Below are positions 1 through 9,816 of a DNA stretch of 64,000 bases, piece after piece. This DNA is from an uncultured Chloroflexia bacterium (GTDB lineage Bacteria; Chloroflexota; Limnocylindria; Limnocylindrales; CSP1-4). Made by a program: the position numbers and the translations under genes. How positions within the stretch are numbered: the first letter of the stretch is position 1; each line of letters opens with the position of its first letter. The notes under the pieces are model-generated. The model ran no database searches and was not told the origin of the DNA. It was given only the letters and a program-made list of their open reading frames with translations. Location: NCBI GenBank assembly GCA_963775225.1, contig CAVZHW010000002.1, positions 211,909 through 275,908 of the forward strand, in the 5' to 3' direction.

Positions 1-559
1 CCTTGGTCCGGGTGTCCTGGCCACCCGGCCCGCGGACGGTGATGGTGACCGAGTAGTCGCCGTAGGCGGCATAGGTGTGGCTGGGGTTCTGCGCATAGGA
101 CGTCTTGCCATCGCCGAAGTCCCAACTCCAGTGGGTGACGTCGCCACTCGAGAGGTCCTGCCACTTCACCGTCAGCCCGTCGGACTGGATGGTGCCGGTG
201 AAGTTCGCCTGCGGGGCAGCTGGCGGCGTCGGCGTCGGCTCCGACGTGGGCGTGGGCGTCGGCGAGGGGGTCGGTGTCGGTGTCGGTTGCAGCGTGGGCG
301 TCGGCGTCGGCTCTGCGGTCGGGGTCGGCTCGGTGGTCGGAGTTGGCGCTGCCGTCGGTGTTGGTGGGGCGGTCGAAGTCGTTTCATGCGTTGGCTGCAG
401 CGGGGTCGGCAGCACGTTGTTCACTGGGGTCGAGGCAGCAAACGTGTCGCCATCGACTGCCGGCTTTGGTGCCAAGCCGCTGACGGCCAGGAGCGCGACG
501 AACGTAAGGACGACTAACGCCACGATCAGCATGGCGAGAGTCCTGCCTGTGCTACCCAT
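1..559 (-). CDS. Secreted or anchored PKD-domain protein with a Pro/Thr-rich linker; the C-terminal part is cut by the window edge
   Basis: Not in the ORF track because it runs off the window. Reverse translation from ATG at 559 (alternative ATG at 532) gives MGSTGRTLAMLIVALVVLTFVALLAVSG (hydrophobic anchor or signal). This is followed by a (T/P)-rich linker, PTPTAAPTPTTEPTPTAEPTPTPTLQPTPTPTPSPTPTPTSEPTPTPP. Then comes WSWDFGDGKTSYAQNPSHTYAAYGDYSVTITVRGPGGQDT, a canonical PKD motif (WxFGDG..HxY..G.Y.V.L.V). Confidence 0.75.
   Translation of the reverse strand, partial: MGSTGRTLAMLIVALVVLTFVALLAVSGLAPKPAVDGDTFAASTPVNNVLPTPLQPTHETTSTAPPTPTAAPTPTTEPTPTAEPTPTPTLQPTPTPTPSPTPTPTSEPTPTPPAAPQANFTGTIQSDGLTVKWQDLSSGDVTHWSWDFGDGKTSYAQNPSHTYAAYGDYSVTITVRGPGGQDTRTK
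221..370 (-). repeat. Low-complexity GGCGTC/GGTGTC-type microsatellite-like tract encoding the (Thr-Pro)n linker of the PKD protein
   Basis: The plus strand reads ggcgtcggcgtcggctccgacgtgggcgtgggcgtcggcgagggggtcggtgtcggtgtcgg... This translates on the minus strand to TPTPTP-rich sequence. Confidence 0.7.
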
Positions 560-656
560 CCGCGCCCAGCGCTGCTCCTGTCACTGACGAAAATGTACGT
601 CGCGGCCATTGCGGTCACAAGGAATTCCGCGATCGCGGGCGGAGGCGTCGGGACCG

Positions 657-3158
657 TCAGTGAATGTGGTTCACCGTGCCGGCGACAATCGTGTACTGGA
701 GCGGCGTGGCGTCGCTGAACTTGAAATGCCACTTGCCCGGCAGCAGCTCGATGTCCTGCGTGAAGGTATGCCACGACGTCAGCGAGTACTGCGTCGCGTT
801 GCCGCTGTCGGAGTGCACGGCACCGGTCTGGAAGACCACCGGTGTTGAAACGTCCTGGGTGATCTCCACGGAGCTGTAGTTGTACGTCATCCTGAACTTG
901 TAGCTGCCCGGGAACAGCGCGAAGGTCACGTTGCCGGAGCCATCGGTCGTGCCAACCGGGATCCACGATCCACCGCCCTGCTCGACCACTCCCCCCGAGA
1001 GGCCAGCGCCACTGTGGTCGAGCAGGCTTACGGTCGCGTCGACAGTCGCAAAGGTGAAGATCGAGTGAGTCGGCTGGCTGTCGGTCTGCGTCGCCGAGCC
1101 GTTGTGGTAGTCCACGCGGACCTTGATGCTGCCCAGCGCACCGTCGACCAGCAGATATGCCCGGCCAGTGCCATCGGTAGTGCCGAACGGCAGCCATGAG
1201 CCGCCCGGCGCGTAGTCGATCACGCCACCGGACAGCCCACTGGCAGATGCATCGTCCAGGTGGACGATGACCATGCTCTTGGTGTAGGTCTCGCCCGCGC
1301 CCCACGTGAGCGGTAGCACGTAACCACCATCGGCCGGATCGCGGAAGTGGAAGTTGTAGGTGCCGGCGAGCAGATTCATCGTGGGCTGGGTGAACCAGGC
1401 TGAGTCGCCAGAGCCGCCACCGTACGAGAGCGAGCCGCTGTAGTACAGCGTGACCGTGGCCGTGTTCCAGGTCAGGGTCGTGTCCGCATCTGGGATATCG
1501 ACACTGACTTTAGTCTCAGCGGTGCCCTGGTACTCCATCTCGAACGAGTACGTGCCGGGGAACACTTCGGCAGAACTGGTGCCGTCGACGCCGGTCAGGC
1601 CACCCGGGAACCACCAGCTCGTGTAGGTCGAACCAATGCCGTAGCGCGCGTTCCCGCCGGCCAATGGATCACCACCGGCCGTCTCGAGCGCGAGCGTCAA
1701 CTTCCGCGTCTGGAACTGATAGACGGAGTTCACGCCGGCGTCCTGGGTCACCATCTGGGTCGTCCCGTTGAGCTTCATTTCGTTGGTCACGGTCCCCACG
1801 AGACCCGGCAGATCGTAGGCGAGGATCCCGGGCGCCGATGCCTCATCGCCGGTCGAGCCCGGAGCGAACTGCCAGCTGCCGGCCTGATAGCGTGCCGTCC
1901 CCCCATCGATCGGCACGCCACCACTGTCGACCAGGCGCAGGGCGATGAGGCTGCGCGTGTAGGTCGCACCAGGGCCGGCAGCGACCGGCCAGCCGAGCCC
2001 GATCCGGCCCGATGCCCCACCAGTCCCGTCAAGCCGGAAGCGGACCGGGGTGACACCGTCAGAGAAGAGCTCCATCGAGGGCTTGGAGAACGAGGCTGCA
2101 TCGCCGTTGGGCCCGCCAAAAGCAAGCGGTGCTCTGTACTGCAGCGTGACCCTGGTGGTGTAGAAGTTGAAGGTGGTGTCGGAGGTGACGTGCTCCGTCA
2201 CTTGCTGGCTGAGCGTGTGGTCCTTGCCCACCCAGACCGTTACATCGCCGGCCGGCACCGTGCTTTCTCGACAACCGCTGGCGCCGACCGGCCCCACATA
2301 GTGGCTCGAGCCCTCAGCCCACCAGGCCTGGTCACTGTCCAGCACGATGGGAGCGCCGGTGCTGTCGTACGCGCAGACGGTGATCGTCGGGTCCGTCGGG
2401 GTGCTCCAGGTCCCGGAGCTGGCGGACGCGCCGAGACTCGCGCTCGAACTGAACCAGGCTCCCGACGCGGTGACGGGACCCGGATCCCCGGCCGGCAGCA
2501 GGTTGCCCACCAGCGGGATCCGCAACACGACCTGGCCGACCACGCGCACGTCGTTGGCGCTGAAGTCGTCGCCCACGCTGTTGGCGTCGCCCTTGGTCAC
2601 GAAGGATCCATCGGAGTTGACCGTCGCGACCCGGTGCGTGACGACCGAGTTGTCCACTTCCATCGTCAGGATCATGCCCGGCTCGATCTGATCGGGCGGC
2701 CGGGTGATGACGACCAGGTCGCCGGCGCTGATGGTGGGCGTCATGCTCGCCCCCTTGACCACCAGCACGTGGTACCAGCGGTTGTTGATCAGCCCGTAGG
2801 CCACGAAGACCGCGAACACGACCGCCGCGACCAGGGCGGCGTCAAAGGCAAGGCCGACAATTCGCCTGACCAGGCGCAGTGCCCGGCGGCGTCGTGTCAG
2901 TGGCAGTGGGCGTGGTGCGACAGCCTCGACGGCCGCCTGGCCGCGGACGGGACCGTCTACCTCCGCTGAGCGTTCGGCCGCCGACGCGTCGTCCGGGTTG
3001 GCCGGCGGCTCAGGATCGCTGAGGTGCTGCAGCCGGAAACCGAGTGAGAAGAAGGTTGCCATGACGGTCACGCCGAAGATGAGGCCCGCGGCCTGGCCGA
3101 CAAGGCTCGATCCTCGTCGTGCCAAGCTGGGTTTCAACTTCGACTCCGTTGCCGCCAC
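657..3158 (-). CDS. SipW-like type I signal peptidase (S26, Ser/His type) fused to a C-terminal repeat (beta-sandwich-like) ectodomain of about 600 aa
   Basis: This is the ORF 657..3332, trimmed to GTG at 3158, which is preceded by AGGAGA and a 6-nt spacer. The upstream 58 codons overlap the TasA-like gene in another frame. One TM segment (GLIFGVTVMATFFSLGF) and a second hydrophobic stretch are present. S26 motifs seen: VVKGASMTPTISAGDLVVI, VVTHRV, TKGDAN. After the peptidase core there are repeated modules of the type LxDxxGxGLSGGxxxxxxGSWxPxGTTDGxGxxxxxLxPGxYxFxMxY. Confidence 0.8.
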   Translation of the reverse strand: MAATESKLKPSLARRGSSLVGQAAGLIFGVTVMATFFSLGFRLQHLSDPEPPANPDDASAAERSAEVDGPVRGQAAVEAVAPRPLPLTRRRRALRLVRRIVGLAFDAALVAAVVFAVFVAYGLINNRWYHVLVVKGASMTPTISAGDLVVITRPPDQIEPGMILTMEVDNSVVTHRVATVNSDGSFVTKGDANSVGDDFSANDVRVVGQVVLRIPLVGNLLPAGDPGPVTASGAWFSSSASLGASASSGTWSTPTDPTITVCAYDSTGAPIVLDSDQAWWAEGSSHYVGPVGASGCRESTVPAGDVTVWVGKDHTLSQQVTEHVTSDTTFNFYTTRVTLQYRAPLAFGGPNGDAASFSKPSMELFSDGVTPVRFRLDGTGGASGRIGLGWPVAAGPGATYTRSLIALRLVDSGGVPIDGGTARYQAGSWQFAPGSTGDEASAPGILAYDLPGLVGTVTNEMKLNGTTQMVTQDAGVNSVYQFQTRKLTLALETAGGDPLAGGNARYGIGSTYTSWWFPGGLTGVDGTSSAEVFPGTYSFEMEYQGTAETKVSVDIPDADTTLTWNTATVTLYYSGSLSYGGGSGDSAWFTQPTMNLLAGTYNFHFRDPADGGYVLPLTWGAGETYTKSMVIVHLDDASASGLSGGVIDYAPGGSWLPFGTTDGTGRAYLLVDGALGSIKVRVDYHNGSATQTDSQPTHSIFTFATVDATVSLLDHSGAGLSGGVVEQGGGSWIPVGTTDGSGNVTFALFPGSYKFRMTYNYSSVEITQDVSTPVVFQTGAVHSDSGNATQYSLTSWHTFTQDIELLPGKWHFKFSDATPLQYTIVAGTVNHIH

Positions 3159-3240
3159 TGCATGTCTCCTTGAGAGGGAAGACGAATCAAGAGGCTGAGG
3201 ACGGGTGGGCACGCCGTCCTCAGCCGAGGGTACTTGGCTC

Positions 3241-3813
3241 TTACCAGCCCGGGTTCTCGACCTGTGTCGCGTCGACGTGCAGGTTGAAATTGGCGGTCTG
3301 GTTCTCGTAAGCGTTGGTGGTATTCGAGGCAAGCTCGAAGTACACGTTGTAGCAGGCGGTGTAGTTGATCGGCAGGCCGCCGGCGAACGGACCGGGATTC
3401 TGGGTGTTGGTGAAGCTCAGGCTCGTGAGGGCGGCTTCCTGGATCGAGGGGGTGATCTCAGAACCACCGCAGTAGATCTGGTTCACGCGCACCCTGATCT
3501 TGTTGTAGAAGCCGGTCTGGCTCTCCGAGACGAACTCGTCGGTGACGCGGTACTTGACCGGCACCGTCGAGAGTGCGGTGTTGTAAACCTCGAACTCGTA
3601 CGGGCCGGACCAGACGCCGGGCATCAGGTTACTGACGGTGAAGCTGGTGGGATGCGCCTGGACGTCGATGTTGCCGGACGTGGCGGTGACGGCCACGTGA
3701 TCGGAATCACTGAACCACGCGGCGCTGCCGACGGTACCGAAGGCCATGACCGCGAGCATCGCCAGGGCAAAGGCGGCTACCAAGGTTTTTCGCACAGTTA
3801 CTGTCTCCTTCAT
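3241..3813 (-). CDS. TasA/camelysin-like (M73-like) secreted subunit with a SipW-cognate-type signal peptide, paralog 1
   Basis: This is the ORF 3241..3984, trimmed to ATG at 3813 with a GGGGGGAA Shine-Dalgarno-like tract upstream. The N-terminus is MKETVTVRKTLVAAFALAMLAVMAFGTVGSAAWFSDSD..., a hydrophobic signal ending in the AxF(S/T)D-type motif typical of TasA/camelysin family proteins. It is about 55-60% identical by eye to the ORF at 5159..5725. Confidence 0.8.
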   Translation of the reverse strand: MKETVTVRKTLVAAFALAMLAVMAFGTVGSAAWFSDSDHVAVTATSGNIDVQAHPTSFTVSNLMPGVWSGPYEFEVYNTALSTVPVKYRVTDEFVSESQTGFYNKIRVRVNQIYCGGSEITPSIQEAALTSLSFTNTQNPGPFAGGLPINYTACYNVYFELASNTTNAYENQTANFNLHVDATQVENPGW

Positions 3814-4241
3814 TTCCCCCCGCCGGTGACGGCGGCAGACTGCGAAATACGTGTTTGCGCAGTTGCGCGGAGACGATGGTCCAACGCGCAGCGTCCGGAC
3901 GTCATAGCCCACGAGTCCCATGGGGGGCCCAGGCGATAGTCCCAATTCGTGCGTACTGCCCGCCTTGGCCTCGCCCTTGGGCATCTGTCAGCGGCGCGGG
4001 ACTAGTGCGTTGGTACGTGGCAGCCCAAACGGTCAGCGGGGCGACCGTTCCCAGTCGTCGTGGTTGCGGCGATGAGGTGGGGCTGGGCGACGGTTCACGC
4101 TCGCGAGCAGGCTGCGCCTCGGTCGGCGCCGGTGCGGCGTTGGGGTCGGTGTCGACATGGACGTCGAAGTCGGCAGGACCCGCAGGTGAAGCACCTTGGT
4201 CCTGCTGTCCGGGCCGGCCGCTCCGCCGTGCGTCAGAGACG

Positions 4242-5075
4242 TCAGGGAGCCGGAATCGCGCTCCAGGTCGACCCTTCGGCCGACCCTCCGACGGTCAGCA
4301 GGGCGCTGAACCACGCTCCAGACGCGTGGGCCACGGCCGCATCTCCAGTGGGTAGCAGGTTGCCGATGAGAGGGATGCGAAACAGGTACTGCCCGACCAC
4401 ACCGACCGTGTTTCCGCTGAAGTCGTCGCCCACGGAATTGGCGTCGCCCTTGGTGACGAACGTGCCATCCGGGTTGACCTTCTCAACGCGGTGGGTGACG
4501 ACCGAGTTATCCACTTCCATCGTCAGGATCATGCCTGGCTCGATCTGTGCCGGCGGCGGGGTTATGACGATCAGGTCGCCGGCCGTGATGGTCGGATACA
4601 TGCTCCCGCCCTCGACCACGAGCACGTGGTACCAGCGGTTGTTGACCAGCCCGTAGGCGACGAACACGGCGAGCACGACGGCTGCGATCAGGGCCGTGTC
4701 GAGAGCGACGCCTGCCACCCGCCTAGCCAGCCCGAGGGCTTGTCGGCGGCGTGTCAGCGGCGGCCGGGCGGTAATGGCGGTCTCAGGGGGCGAGTCGATG
4801 ACGACAGGCTCGCCCGCAGCGGGCCGCTCCGCATCGGGCCGCTCCGCATCCGGCTCGTTCGCAGTCGCCTCGTTACCCGCCGGGCCGTCCAATCCGGACT
4901 CGTCAGCCGTGTCTTGCGTGGGCGGGGCGATGGTCACGCGCAGCAAATGGACCACGATGGCGAAGAAGGCGGCAACGACCGCCAGGACGACGATGAGCTC
5001 GACCACCTGACCGGCCGGACTCGCACCAGGCCGCTCGAACGTGGACTTGCGGACCGATTTGTTGGCCGCCATCAC
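4242..5075 (-). CDS. SipW-like type I signal peptidase (S26), short paralog
   Basis: Motifs seen: VVEGGSMYPTITAGDLIVI, VVTHRV, TKGDANS, FRIPLIGNLLP. There is an N-terminal TM (VVELIVVLAVVAAFFAIVV) and a second TM before the catalytic Ser. The start is GTG at 5075 or ATG at 5072, behind GGTGGAGA. The peptidase core is clearly paralogous to that of 657..3158. Confidence 0.85.
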   Translation of the reverse strand: MMAANKSVRKSTFERPGASPAGQVVELIVVLAVVAAFFAIVVHLLRVTIAPPTQDTADESGLDGPAGNEATANEPDAERPDAERPAAGEPVVIDSPPETAITARPPLTRRRQALGLARRVAGVALDTALIAAVVLAVFVAYGLVNNRWYHVLVVEGGSMYPTITAGDLIVITPPPAQIEPGMILTMEVDNSVVTHRVEKVNPDGTFVTKGDANSVGDDFSGNTVGVVGQYLFRIPLIGNLLPTGDAAVAHASGAWFSALLTVGGSAEGSTWSAIPAP

Positions 5076-5158
5076 GGTATCTCCACCTAGAGAAAGAAAG
5101 TCGCTCGGTTGAGGATGGACGCGCTGCGCCCATCCTCAGCCCTTCGATATTGGCTGTC

Positions 5159-5725
5159 TTACTGAGCCCAGCCCGGGTTCTCGAGCTGAGTCGCGTCGAC
5201 ATCCAAATTGAAGTGAGCGGTCTGGCTCTGGAACGTGTTCGGTGTGGCGTCCAAAAGCTTGAAGTACAGGTTGTAGCACGCGGTGGTGTTGATCGGAAGG
5301 CCCGTCGTGAACAACGTTGGCCCATTCGCGTTGGTGAAGACGAGGTTCTCAAGGAGACCTTGGTAGGTAGCGGGCGTGATTTCTGGACCATTGACGCCGC
5401 AGTACCACTGGTTGACCTTGACCAAGATTTGGTCGTAGAAACCAGCAACGGTCTGCGAGACGAACTCGTCCATCACTCGATACTTCACCGGGACCGTGGA
5501 ATCGGGCTCGTTGTGGATCTGGACCATGTATGCATCCGTCCACACGCCCGGCATCAGGTTGCTGACAGTGAAGTCGGTCGGATCGGCCGTGACATGGACC
5601 TTGCCAGACGTGGCGGTGACGGCCACGGTGTCAGAGCTGGTGAACCATGCGGCGCTGCCAATGGCGCCGTAGGCCATCACCGCGGTCAGGGCAAGAGCAA
5701 AAACGAATACCAGGGGCTTACGCAC
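5159..5725 (-). CDS. TasA/camelysin-like secreted subunit, paralog 2
   Basis: MRKPLVFVFALALTAVMAYGAIGSAAWFTSSDTVAVTATSGKVHV... The start is GTG, preceded by AAGGAG. It shares with paralog 1 the blocks FTVSNLMPGVW, TVPVKYRV.DEFVS, GLPIN.TACYN.YF and DATQ.ENPGW, plus two conserved Cys. Confidence 0.85.
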   Translation of the reverse strand: MRKPLVFVFALALTAVMAYGAIGSAAWFTSSDTVAVTATSGKVHVTADPTDFTVSNLMPGVWTDAYMVQIHNEPDSTVPVKYRVMDEFVSQTVAGFYDQILVKVNQWYCGVNGPEITPATYQGLLENLVFTNANGPTLFTTGLPINTTACYNLYFKLLDATPNTFQSQTAHFNLDVDATQLENPGWAQ

Positions 5726-6114
5726 GATTAGTTACTCCTTGACTTGGCCGCCGGGCACGGCGGCGTGACCGAGACTGCCTGTGCCATCCCGGAGACAGGC
5801 GTCAAGAACGCTAGGCAATAGACCATCCCCTCCCACTGCGAGATCGCGTGCAGCGCTCGTTACGCGGCTGCGCCCGCTGCAGCCTTCCTGTTCTCCCAGG
5901 GCACTCGTCGTGCGGGCCTTCGAGCACCGGTGCCGCGGCCGTTAGTACTAGTCAGGGCCAGTACGAAAGGCATGTGCCGGATGGACCCCGGGGTGGGCCA
6001 AAGGGCCCTCCAGCGCCTTGGGTGGGACGGTCGCTGTCGCGTCTAAACTGCGTTGTTGTGAACGAATCGGGCTCGACGGCAAGGATCGCGGGGGTCGTCG
6101 AACGTGGTGCGCGG

Positions 6115-9816
<3,702 letters not shown>

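Follow-up and report, generated by a model that had tools for sequence, protein, structure and literature searches.

The window analysed here is a stretch of 64,000 nucleotides from an uncultured Chloroflexia bacterium (assembly GCA_963775225.1, contig CAVZHW010000002.1, positions 211,909 to 275,908). At 657..3158 on its minus strand it carries a single gene in which a SipW-type signal peptidase is followed, in one frame, by a short tail with a putative cleavage motif and an array of eight repeat modules. The predicted protein has 833 amino acids (P0002), and its stop codon lies at 657-659. The maximal open reading frame (ORF) is longer, 657..3332 on the minus strand or 891 amino acids, and overlaps the upstream gene; the likely start is the GTG at 3158, which has an AAGGAG 7 nt upstream, leaves no overlap with the preceding gene and is also used in the public gene call. 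The gene is part of a compact operon on the minus strand (window positions 1-5800), in the order TasA-like subunit 2, a second SipW-like peptidase (SipW2), TasA-like subunit 1, the fusion gene and a gene for a PKD-domain protein.

Subunit 1 (3241..~3813, minus strand; start approximate, its longest ORF extending to 3984) passes the thresholds of two hidden Markov models (HMMs) of TasA/camelysin-like proteins, with 27.1 bits against 22.5 for PF12389 and 20.5 against 19 for TIGR04088, and its signal peptide ends ...FGTVGSAA↓WFSDSDHVAVTATSG. Subunit 2 (5159..5725, minus strand) is a clear paralogue of subunit 1 that scores 13.6 and 14.6 bits with the same models, under threshold, and has a signal peptide ending ...YGAIGSAA↓WFTSSDTVAVTATSG. 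SipW2 (4242..5075, minus strand; 277 aa), a paralogue of the fused peptidase, scores 71.8 bits with TIGR02228 and ends 25 aa past its own copy of the motif SGAWF. The locus therefore has what marks a SipW/TasA-type operon, namely an adjoining TasA/camelysin-like subunit with a signal peptide of the SipW-dependent type.

The N-terminal 235 residues of the fusion form a signal peptidase I of the endoplasmic reticulum (ER)/archaeal type. TIGR02228 matches residues 168-278 with 58.1 bits, above its cut-off of 51.85, and PF00717 matches with 28.5 bits, which bears out the original prediction of a SipW-like type I signal peptidase that carries a large extracytoplasmic repeat appendage within one ORF. 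The equivalog model of Bacillus SipW, NF046067, gives 31.3 bits, and because this is far under its cut-off of 190 the peptidase is not an orthologue of Bacillus SipW; it works like SipW without being its orthologue. The catalytic core lies at 2484..2786 on the minus strand, as delimited by TIGR02228, PF00717 and an AlphaFold2 (AF2) model with a predicted local distance difference test score (pLDDT) of ~90. Within it, in the numbering of the 891-aa ORF, Ser196 (2745-2747, context GASM), His233 (2634-2636, context VTHR) and Asp249 (2586-2588, context GDANSVGDD, which also holds Asp255), all on the minus strand, are, together with Asp255, invariant across 34 aligned relatives. A Ser/His/Asp set is thus present in place of the bacterial Ser-Lys dyad, and for these residues we assume the roles given to them in published work on SipW.

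Hydropathy gives only two hydrophobic segments in the fusion protein, and since both precede the catalytic domain, the extension should lie on the same side of the membrane as that domain. The first, LVGQAAGLIFGVTVMATFFSLGF (3036..3104, minus strand), was located by hydropathy and alignment and occurs in the closest relatives only. The second (2787..2861, minus strand), which follows TRRRRALRLVRR, is a signal-anchor helix modelled by AF2 as one long helix with a pLDDT of 86-97; it provides a membrane anchor directly ahead of the catalytic domain (residues 96-127 of P0002, with RRRR before it). In the closest relatives, both paralogues (4242-5075; 2388-3158) carry this additional segment at the N-terminus and, ahead of the signal-anchor helix, an acidic loop of ~55 residues; neither is found in more distant members of the family. 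A LepB-like topology is a candidate.

Between the last catalytic strand (RIPLVGNLLP) and the array lies the stretch PAGDPGPVTASGAWFSSSASLGASASSGTWSTPTDP, whose flexible tail element, SGAWFSSSASLGASASSGTWSTPTDP (2388..2465, minus strand), was delimited by AF2 disorder, fixed spacing, a position-specific scoring matrix (PSSM) and a permutation test. It begins with S-G-A-W-F (2451..2465, minus strand), which motif conservation marks as a proposed cleavage site, SGA↓WF, with Ser at P3, Ala at P1 and Phe at P2'. Across 34 peptidases of the clade, the serine is kept in 32, the glycine in 28, the alanine in all 34, the tryptophan in 24 and F or L in all 34, and in 23 of the 34 a further W stands exactly 15 residues after the motif, counted from F. 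The best-conserved tail positions are the P3 and P1 of a signal-peptidase site, and as a sequence the motif fits the -3/-1 rule with an aromatic P2'. An aromatic P2' is the hallmark of the SipW substrate TasA and is poorly handled by E. coli LepB (PMC10269814). The two TasA-like subunits have signal peptides with the ends GSAAWFSD and GSAAWFTS, and AWF with these flanks occurs in this 68%-complete genome only in these two signal peptides and the two peptidase tails. In a genome of the same genus (G006), the signal peptide of a 381-aa RTX/PKD protein ends SASGAWFSSD, a string identical to that of the present tail. The tail has a pLDDT of <50 in both AF2 models, one of the array and one of the peptidase with its tail, between flanking domains modelled with confidence, which indicates a conserved linear motif rather than a part of the fold. 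The possibility that the tail is an integral strand of the peptidase fold was rejected, because the model leaves the tail disordered and the family HMM stops short of it.

The extension runs ~576 aa past the end of the paralogue and the array itself comprises about 580-590 aa, ending at 660. The long extension described in the original prediction is thus present, whereas its length of 596 residues past the paralogue end is not: that number is reached by counting from the residue behind SGAWF. The repeats within the extension are genuine and the strings quoted for them are present, self-alignment scoring 76-113 where shuffled queries gave a null of 36 +/- 5 with a maximum of 54. In place of at least six modules of 85-100 aa, as proposed, we find eight of ~61-83 aa and of two kinds, in the order A-B-A-A-B-A-A-B, which amounts to a super-repeat of ~230 aa. 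The five A-type modules share the motif L.D..G..L.GG...GSW...G.TD..G at pairwise identities of 21-42%, and the three B-type modules share VTL.YSG.L.YGG..GD..WF..P.M.L at 18-41%. All modules are on the minus strand. Module 1 (A-type; 2157..2396) has a cysteine pair, ITVCAY...GASGCRE, and is placed where mature stand-alone homologues begin; self-alignment delimits modules 2 (B; 1953..2156), 3 (A; 1710..1952), 4 (A; 1461..1709), 5 (B; 1278..1460), 6 (A; 1050..1277) and 7 (A; 846..1049), and module 8 (B; 660..845), with the C-terminus ...VNHIH, was defined by repeat comparison and library search. Modules 7-8 (660-1049) match the extreme C-terminus of many larger proteins, of up to 3448 aa, in a representative library, and may serve the repeat family as a conserved unit that caps or anchors the C-terminus.

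AF2 modelling of the array from an alignment of 37 homologues gave an all-beta structure with a mean pLDDT of 93.2 and a predicted template modelling (TM) score of 0.72, in which disorder is confined to the first 16 residues, that is, the tail. With the whole array as query, Foldseek against the PDB matched fragments of the GhpA 'grappling hook' (E = 6e-13), the B. anthracis TIE protein (E = 3e-9) and the Gram-positive pilins BcpA, SpaD, PilA/B and PitA (E 1e-6 to 1e-4), with a probability of up to 1.0, ~10% identity and a whole-chain TM of 0.05-0.25; for the pilins and TIE the probability is about 1.0 and the TM 0.15-0.25. Low whole-chain TM scores are what one would expect of flexible multi-domain rods. 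Sequence models stayed silent: the extension had no match in Pfam even at E <= 1, CnaB, SpaA and CarboxypepD_reg included, none in NCBIfam at E <= 0.1, including the TapA model TIGR04087 (YqxM_for_SipW), and none in a PDB sequence search even at E <= 10, and sub-threshold Pfam matches of the CnaB/SpaA/CarboxypepD_reg type appeared only in one homologue (P0014). The array is accordingly modelled as tandem beta-sandwiches of the Ig/CnaB/prealbumin-like type, by fold only; of the resemblance first drawn to carboxypeptidase-regulatory or Cna-B-like beta-sandwich repeats, the fold class is supported at the level of the whole array and an HMM match to either family is not. The original prediction was to fall if the extension had no repeat or fold similarity, and both were found, the repeats above the null and the fold similarity through Foldseek with the whole array.

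The fusion of peptidase and array is genuine. Related genomes were searched for the fusion or for a split gene pair. In another species of the same genus (G021:C95), an alignment-based scan recovered the junction in a single frame, 75% identical and free of stops up to the contig end; it reads ...SGNPGPVPVSGAWFTASQAIGASVTSGSWSDPNVTIDVCAYNSTG.... This genome is labelled as an uncultured Anaerolineaceae/Chloroflexota metagenome-assembled genome (MAG) and comes from a short-read co-assembly, and the same in-frame junction in an independent assembly of another species implies that the junction is kept under selection. In L001, whose array is the closest relative (83% identity), the locus is the same but for a 1-nt deletion: within 7990-8030 of L001, one base is missing directly after TGGTTCA, the WF codons, and the gene calls there are a 241-aa peptidase and an overlapping 600-aa protein in different frames. 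Such a split is what one would expect if the fusion were an assembly or frameshift error, or a decaying gene that arose by recent accidental read-through and has no function of its own. The 600-aa ORF, however, has no signal peptide and starts within the conserved tail, so that L001 is a frameshifted copy of the fusion and not its split ancestor; together with the intact G021 frame and an exact junction, in which the complete peptidase tail is joined to the first residue of the mature array, this leaves an artefact or decaying gene very improbable. L001 derives from a long-read assembly, where 1-nt indels are common, and its deletion either arose in assembly or truly inactivates the gene. A programmed frameshift was also considered for L001 and rejected, as there is no slippery context and both other genomes are in frame.

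Homologues of the array also occur as free proteins. Five of them (P0004-P0008; 65-71% identity, 600-700 aa) have ordinary Sec signal peptides, after which they start ...AVTHTIAVCLTDSTG, exactly where the array starts in the fusion (TITVCAYDSTG). Sequence comparison thus indicates that the array is joined, without a signal peptide of its own, to a complete peptidase. Stand-alone homologues are often followed by a second, more divergent paralogue of 585-644 aa (L002 2572-4329; L020 2737-4671), which has the first modules in common with them and a different C-terminal part. Conversely, the SipW1 orthologue of G006 lacks the array and ends, at 274 aa, right after the tail, although it falls into one 90%-identity cluster with that of L001. 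Alignment of L001 8025-9850 with L018 (G006:C3) 7380-7470 shows a clean indel of ~1.8 kb that is exactly the array, with both DNA flanks alignable. Because an orthologue of >90% identity lacks the array and the indel is clean, we regard the array as an exchangeable cassette that is dispensable for the enzyme.

The architecture recurs. The original prediction implied that it was unique, yet C-terminal additions behind this motif are common among the SipW-like peptidases of the clade and vary from only ~20 residues to proline- and threonine-rich (PT-rich) linkers, RTX repeats and other globular domains. RTX repeats (HemolysinCabind) follow the motif in P0149 (L026 4001-5278), in L044 and probably in P0158 (L023 4167-4844), and other globular domains follow it in P0115, P0116, P0148, P0153, L031 and L041. 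P0158 starts inside the C-terminus of a peptidase and is probably another frameshifted fusion. The tailed peptidases come mostly from Chloroflexota MAGs and, in a few cases, from Actinomycetota. A word-based search of 5.8 billion proteins found only five that combine this peptidase domain with 458 aa or more in all, and long cargoes are on this count rare. The present gene is the largest example seen here of a recurrent architecture and not a one-off. The RTX cargo of P0149 also aligns with a stand-alone protein of G006 (L018 4562-5707; 47% identity, E = 3e-34) from the motif, APSGAIF/SASGAWF, onwards. N-terminal to it stands a 26-residue signal peptide of the SipW type in the G006 protein and the peptidase in P0149; signal peptide and peptidase body are thus interchangeable ahead of the motif.

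We propose that the fusion protein is a polyprotein, that cleavage at SGA↓WF frees its cargo and that this cargo may then join the TasA-like fibre, a reading to which we give an even chance. Its N-terminus would be an active-looking, membrane-anchored peptidase of the SipW type (Ser-His-Asp) with the catalytic domain outside the cell; no membrane segment follows, and the flexible tail would present the enzyme's own recognition site and then a donor-strand mimic ahead of the eight-module array. We infer topology, cleavage and strand insertion along the following lines. The hydrophobic segments all precede the catalytic domain, a topology in which the peptidase body would serve as the export leader of the array. 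The array would then be cut off at SGA↓WF by the enzyme's own active site, by a neighbouring copy or by SipW2. For this cleavage taken by itself the case is somewhat better than even, because the motif is conserved and cargoes are found behind it whether a signal peptide or a peptidase precedes. The released protein, of ~62 kDa, would begin WFSSSASLGASASSGTW. In the most speculative step, the strand would be inserted into a TasA-like subunit, with WFSSSASLGASASSGTWSTP as the putative inserting peptide for subunit 1 or 2, and the array would act as a TapA-like initiator, tip or adhesin of the fibre.

The strand step draws on a further likeness between tail and subunits. From P3 to +16 the tail (WFSSSASLGASASSG) and the subunits (WFSDSDHVAVTATSG) align without gaps, with a hydrophobic residue at +7, S/T at +10 and G at +14, and the 15-17 or so residues behind the motif are similar to the donor strand at the N-terminus of these subunits. 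The fibre of B. subtilis is built through such a donor strand, TasA residues 28-38, which follow directly on the SipW site; the TapA N-terminus mimics this strand and is proposed to supply the first one (PMC9674648, PMC10151520). A PSSM built from 32 tails of other organisms was scanned over the 1.7 million positions of this genome; the two tails of the operon's own peptidases ranked first and second, subunit 2 third (33.9 bits) and subunit 1 tied fourth/fifth (19.3 bits), both subunit matches falling exactly at the end of the signal peptide. Across seven pairs from different lineages, cognate tails and subunits outscored non-cognate ones (exact permutation p = 0.019), and the result holds with or without the five motif residues.

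These similarities bear on another explanation, in which the array is released but has nothing to do with the fibre: a general surface or adhesin protein would then use the peptidase only as another kind of export leader, and the likeness of the tail to a donor strand would reflect the enzyme's extended recognition sequence. It would sit well with the absence of SipW or TasA genes beside the stand-alone array homologues in the loci examined. The breadth of the family points the same way: it comprises 920 representative clusters at E <= 1e-3 and 358 at E <= 1e-30, extracellular repeat proteins of 200-3400 aa in many domain contexts, often with T9SS, CarboxypepD_reg, Big_1, YD or HYR domains. 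Nevertheless, the TasA-like spacing is kept up to +16, the co-variation with the cognate subunit extends beyond the motif, and the same stretch is the donor strand in TasA (PMC9674648). We therefore consider release without a part in the fibre unlikely.

Several observations weigh against the polyprotein. The motif is present in the short paralogue and in many relatives that have only ~20 residues or PT-rich linkers behind it, where release would serve no obvious purpose, and it may there act as a pseudo-substrate, an anchor strand or in regulation. AF2 of the peptidase with its tail left the tail disordered and did not dock it in the active site, an outcome that by itself speaks neither for nor against docking. 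Directly upstream of the motif there is no hydrophobic h-region, unlike in a true signal peptide. With two N-terminal hydrophobic segments, the inferred position of the catalytic domain outside the cell is not firm. The co-variation test is small, with its seven pairs, and cognate sequences share genome composition. Isolated tails gave no match to TIGR04088, a scan that is uninformative because it also missed a bona fide signal peptide used as positive control.

Some of these points suit a permanent ectodomain instead, the main rival, in which the array stays attached as a wall-spanning or wall-binding stalk, or as a docking platform for substrate or fibre that localises the enzyme, and the SGAWF tail is a pseudo-substrate, a regulatory element or an uncleaved donor strand that anchors the fibre base to the peptidase. 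Peptidases with almost nothing, or with linkers of the wall-spanning PT-rich type, behind motif and tail are what this rival would lead one to expect, as is a tail that AF2 does not dock, and a conserved 15-residue element ending in W exceeds the needs of a cleavage site and suits a binding strand. B. subtilis SipW is itself described as bifunctional, with its second role in the C-terminal region. Against permanent attachment, the orthologue without the array makes the array dispensable for the peptidase, the array is secreted elsewhere as a protein in its own right, conservation of the tail is highest at precisely P3 and P1, and the same type of cargo is found behind a cleavable signal peptide in an alignment that starts at the motif. 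We rate a permanent ectodomain as possible, with the odds clearly against it. The original prediction had left the choice between a tether and a released component; with a cleavage-type motif as in substrates, a stand-alone array and an orthologue without the array, release is favoured over a permanent tether.

As a whole, the system is a variant of the tapA-sipW-tasA kind, in which the peptidase and the subunits pass family tests and the array passes none. As in B. subtilis, the gene of a dedicated signal peptidase of the ER/archaeal type adjoins genes for TasA/camelysin-like subunits, the subunit signal peptides end small-x-Ala↓aromatic-Phe, and the SipW site of an accessory protein is followed at once by a copy of the donor strand (PMC9674648, PMC10151520). 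It differs from B. subtilis in that the accessory part is the peptidase's own C-terminal continuation and not a separate gene product with a signal peptide, and in that this part is an eight-module array without similarity to TapA (no TIGR04087 match). In addition, the peptidase is not a SipW orthologue, there are two peptidase/subunit pairs, and the host belongs to the Chloroflexota. The fusion lacks a hydrophobic segment before the motif, while its cargo family is otherwise Sec-exported, and the presence or absence of the array is polymorphic among near-identical peptidase orthologues. In the literature searched there was no report of a signal peptidase fused to its own substrate, and no characterised signal peptidase with such an appendage, in agreement with the original prediction.

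Proteases of clan SF that cleave themselves, LexA, UmuD and lambda CI (Peptidase_S24), cut a small-residue Ala↓Gly site in their own flexible linker, in cis or in trans, and self-cleavage is thereby established for the fold. The present peptidase belongs to the same clan, with its PF00717 match, but whereas LexA, UmuD and CI are cytoplasmic, rely on a Ser-Lys dyad and are cut on the N-terminal side of their catalytic domain, the fusion has Ser-His(-Asp), a C-terminal site and a predicted extracytoplasmic position, and it does not qualify as a LexA-like S24 protein. The array, for its part, resembles pilins (BcpA, SpaD, PilB), TIE and GhpA as a rod-like string of small surface beta-sandwich domains, and is unlike them in having no sortase signal and no Pfam CnaB, SpaA or CarboxypepD_reg match.

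Two further features flank the fusion gene. Downstream, at 2..559 on the minus strand, a gene that runs past the window encodes a membrane-anchored protein with a PT-rich linker and PKD (PF18911, 9e-16); in the genome it occupies C2:211661-212467 and encodes 268 aa with an N-terminal anchor, a long PT-rich linker and two PKD domains. In G006 and L001 the locus likewise ends with this conserved PKD/PT-linker gene, whose product may be a wall-spanning partner of the fibre system. Upstream, a stem-loop with an 8-bp GC-rich stem and a 9-nt loop (GAGGACGG-N9-CCGTCCTC; 3197..3221, minus strand) was read from the sequence; it separates the stop codon of subunit 1 from the ribosome-binding site of the fusion gene. 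One candidate role is that of an attenuator that would hold the subunit in excess over peptidase and cargo.

Signal peptidases are regarded as stand-alone housekeeping or dedicated enzymes. If our reading is true, a natural, conserved fusion of peptidase and cargo through the enzyme's own cleavage motif would be a new coupling of export, processing and assembly. More tentatively, and with the balance against it, the SGAWF-tailed SipW peptidases of Chloroflexota might constitute a general 'self-delivering' system: each would carry a copy of the donor strand behind its own site, to which any cargo cassette (Ig array, RTX, lectins, linkers) could be spliced, and the cargo would be released where the subunits are processed, priming or capping a TasA-type fibre. 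Such a system would amount to a chaperone-free and sortase-free modular tip display, and would provide the first signal peptidase to act as the leader of its own substrate. TasA-type fibres are widespread in bacteria and archaea and relevant to biofilms, and one gene with one motif would offer a simple genetic handle on the initiation or decoration of these fibres outside Bacillus. The uncharacterised extracellular repeat family of ~900 sequence clusters to which the array belongs is now assigned a context, and its cassette-like gain and loss suggests a natural 'plug-in' scaffold with a possible use in protein display.

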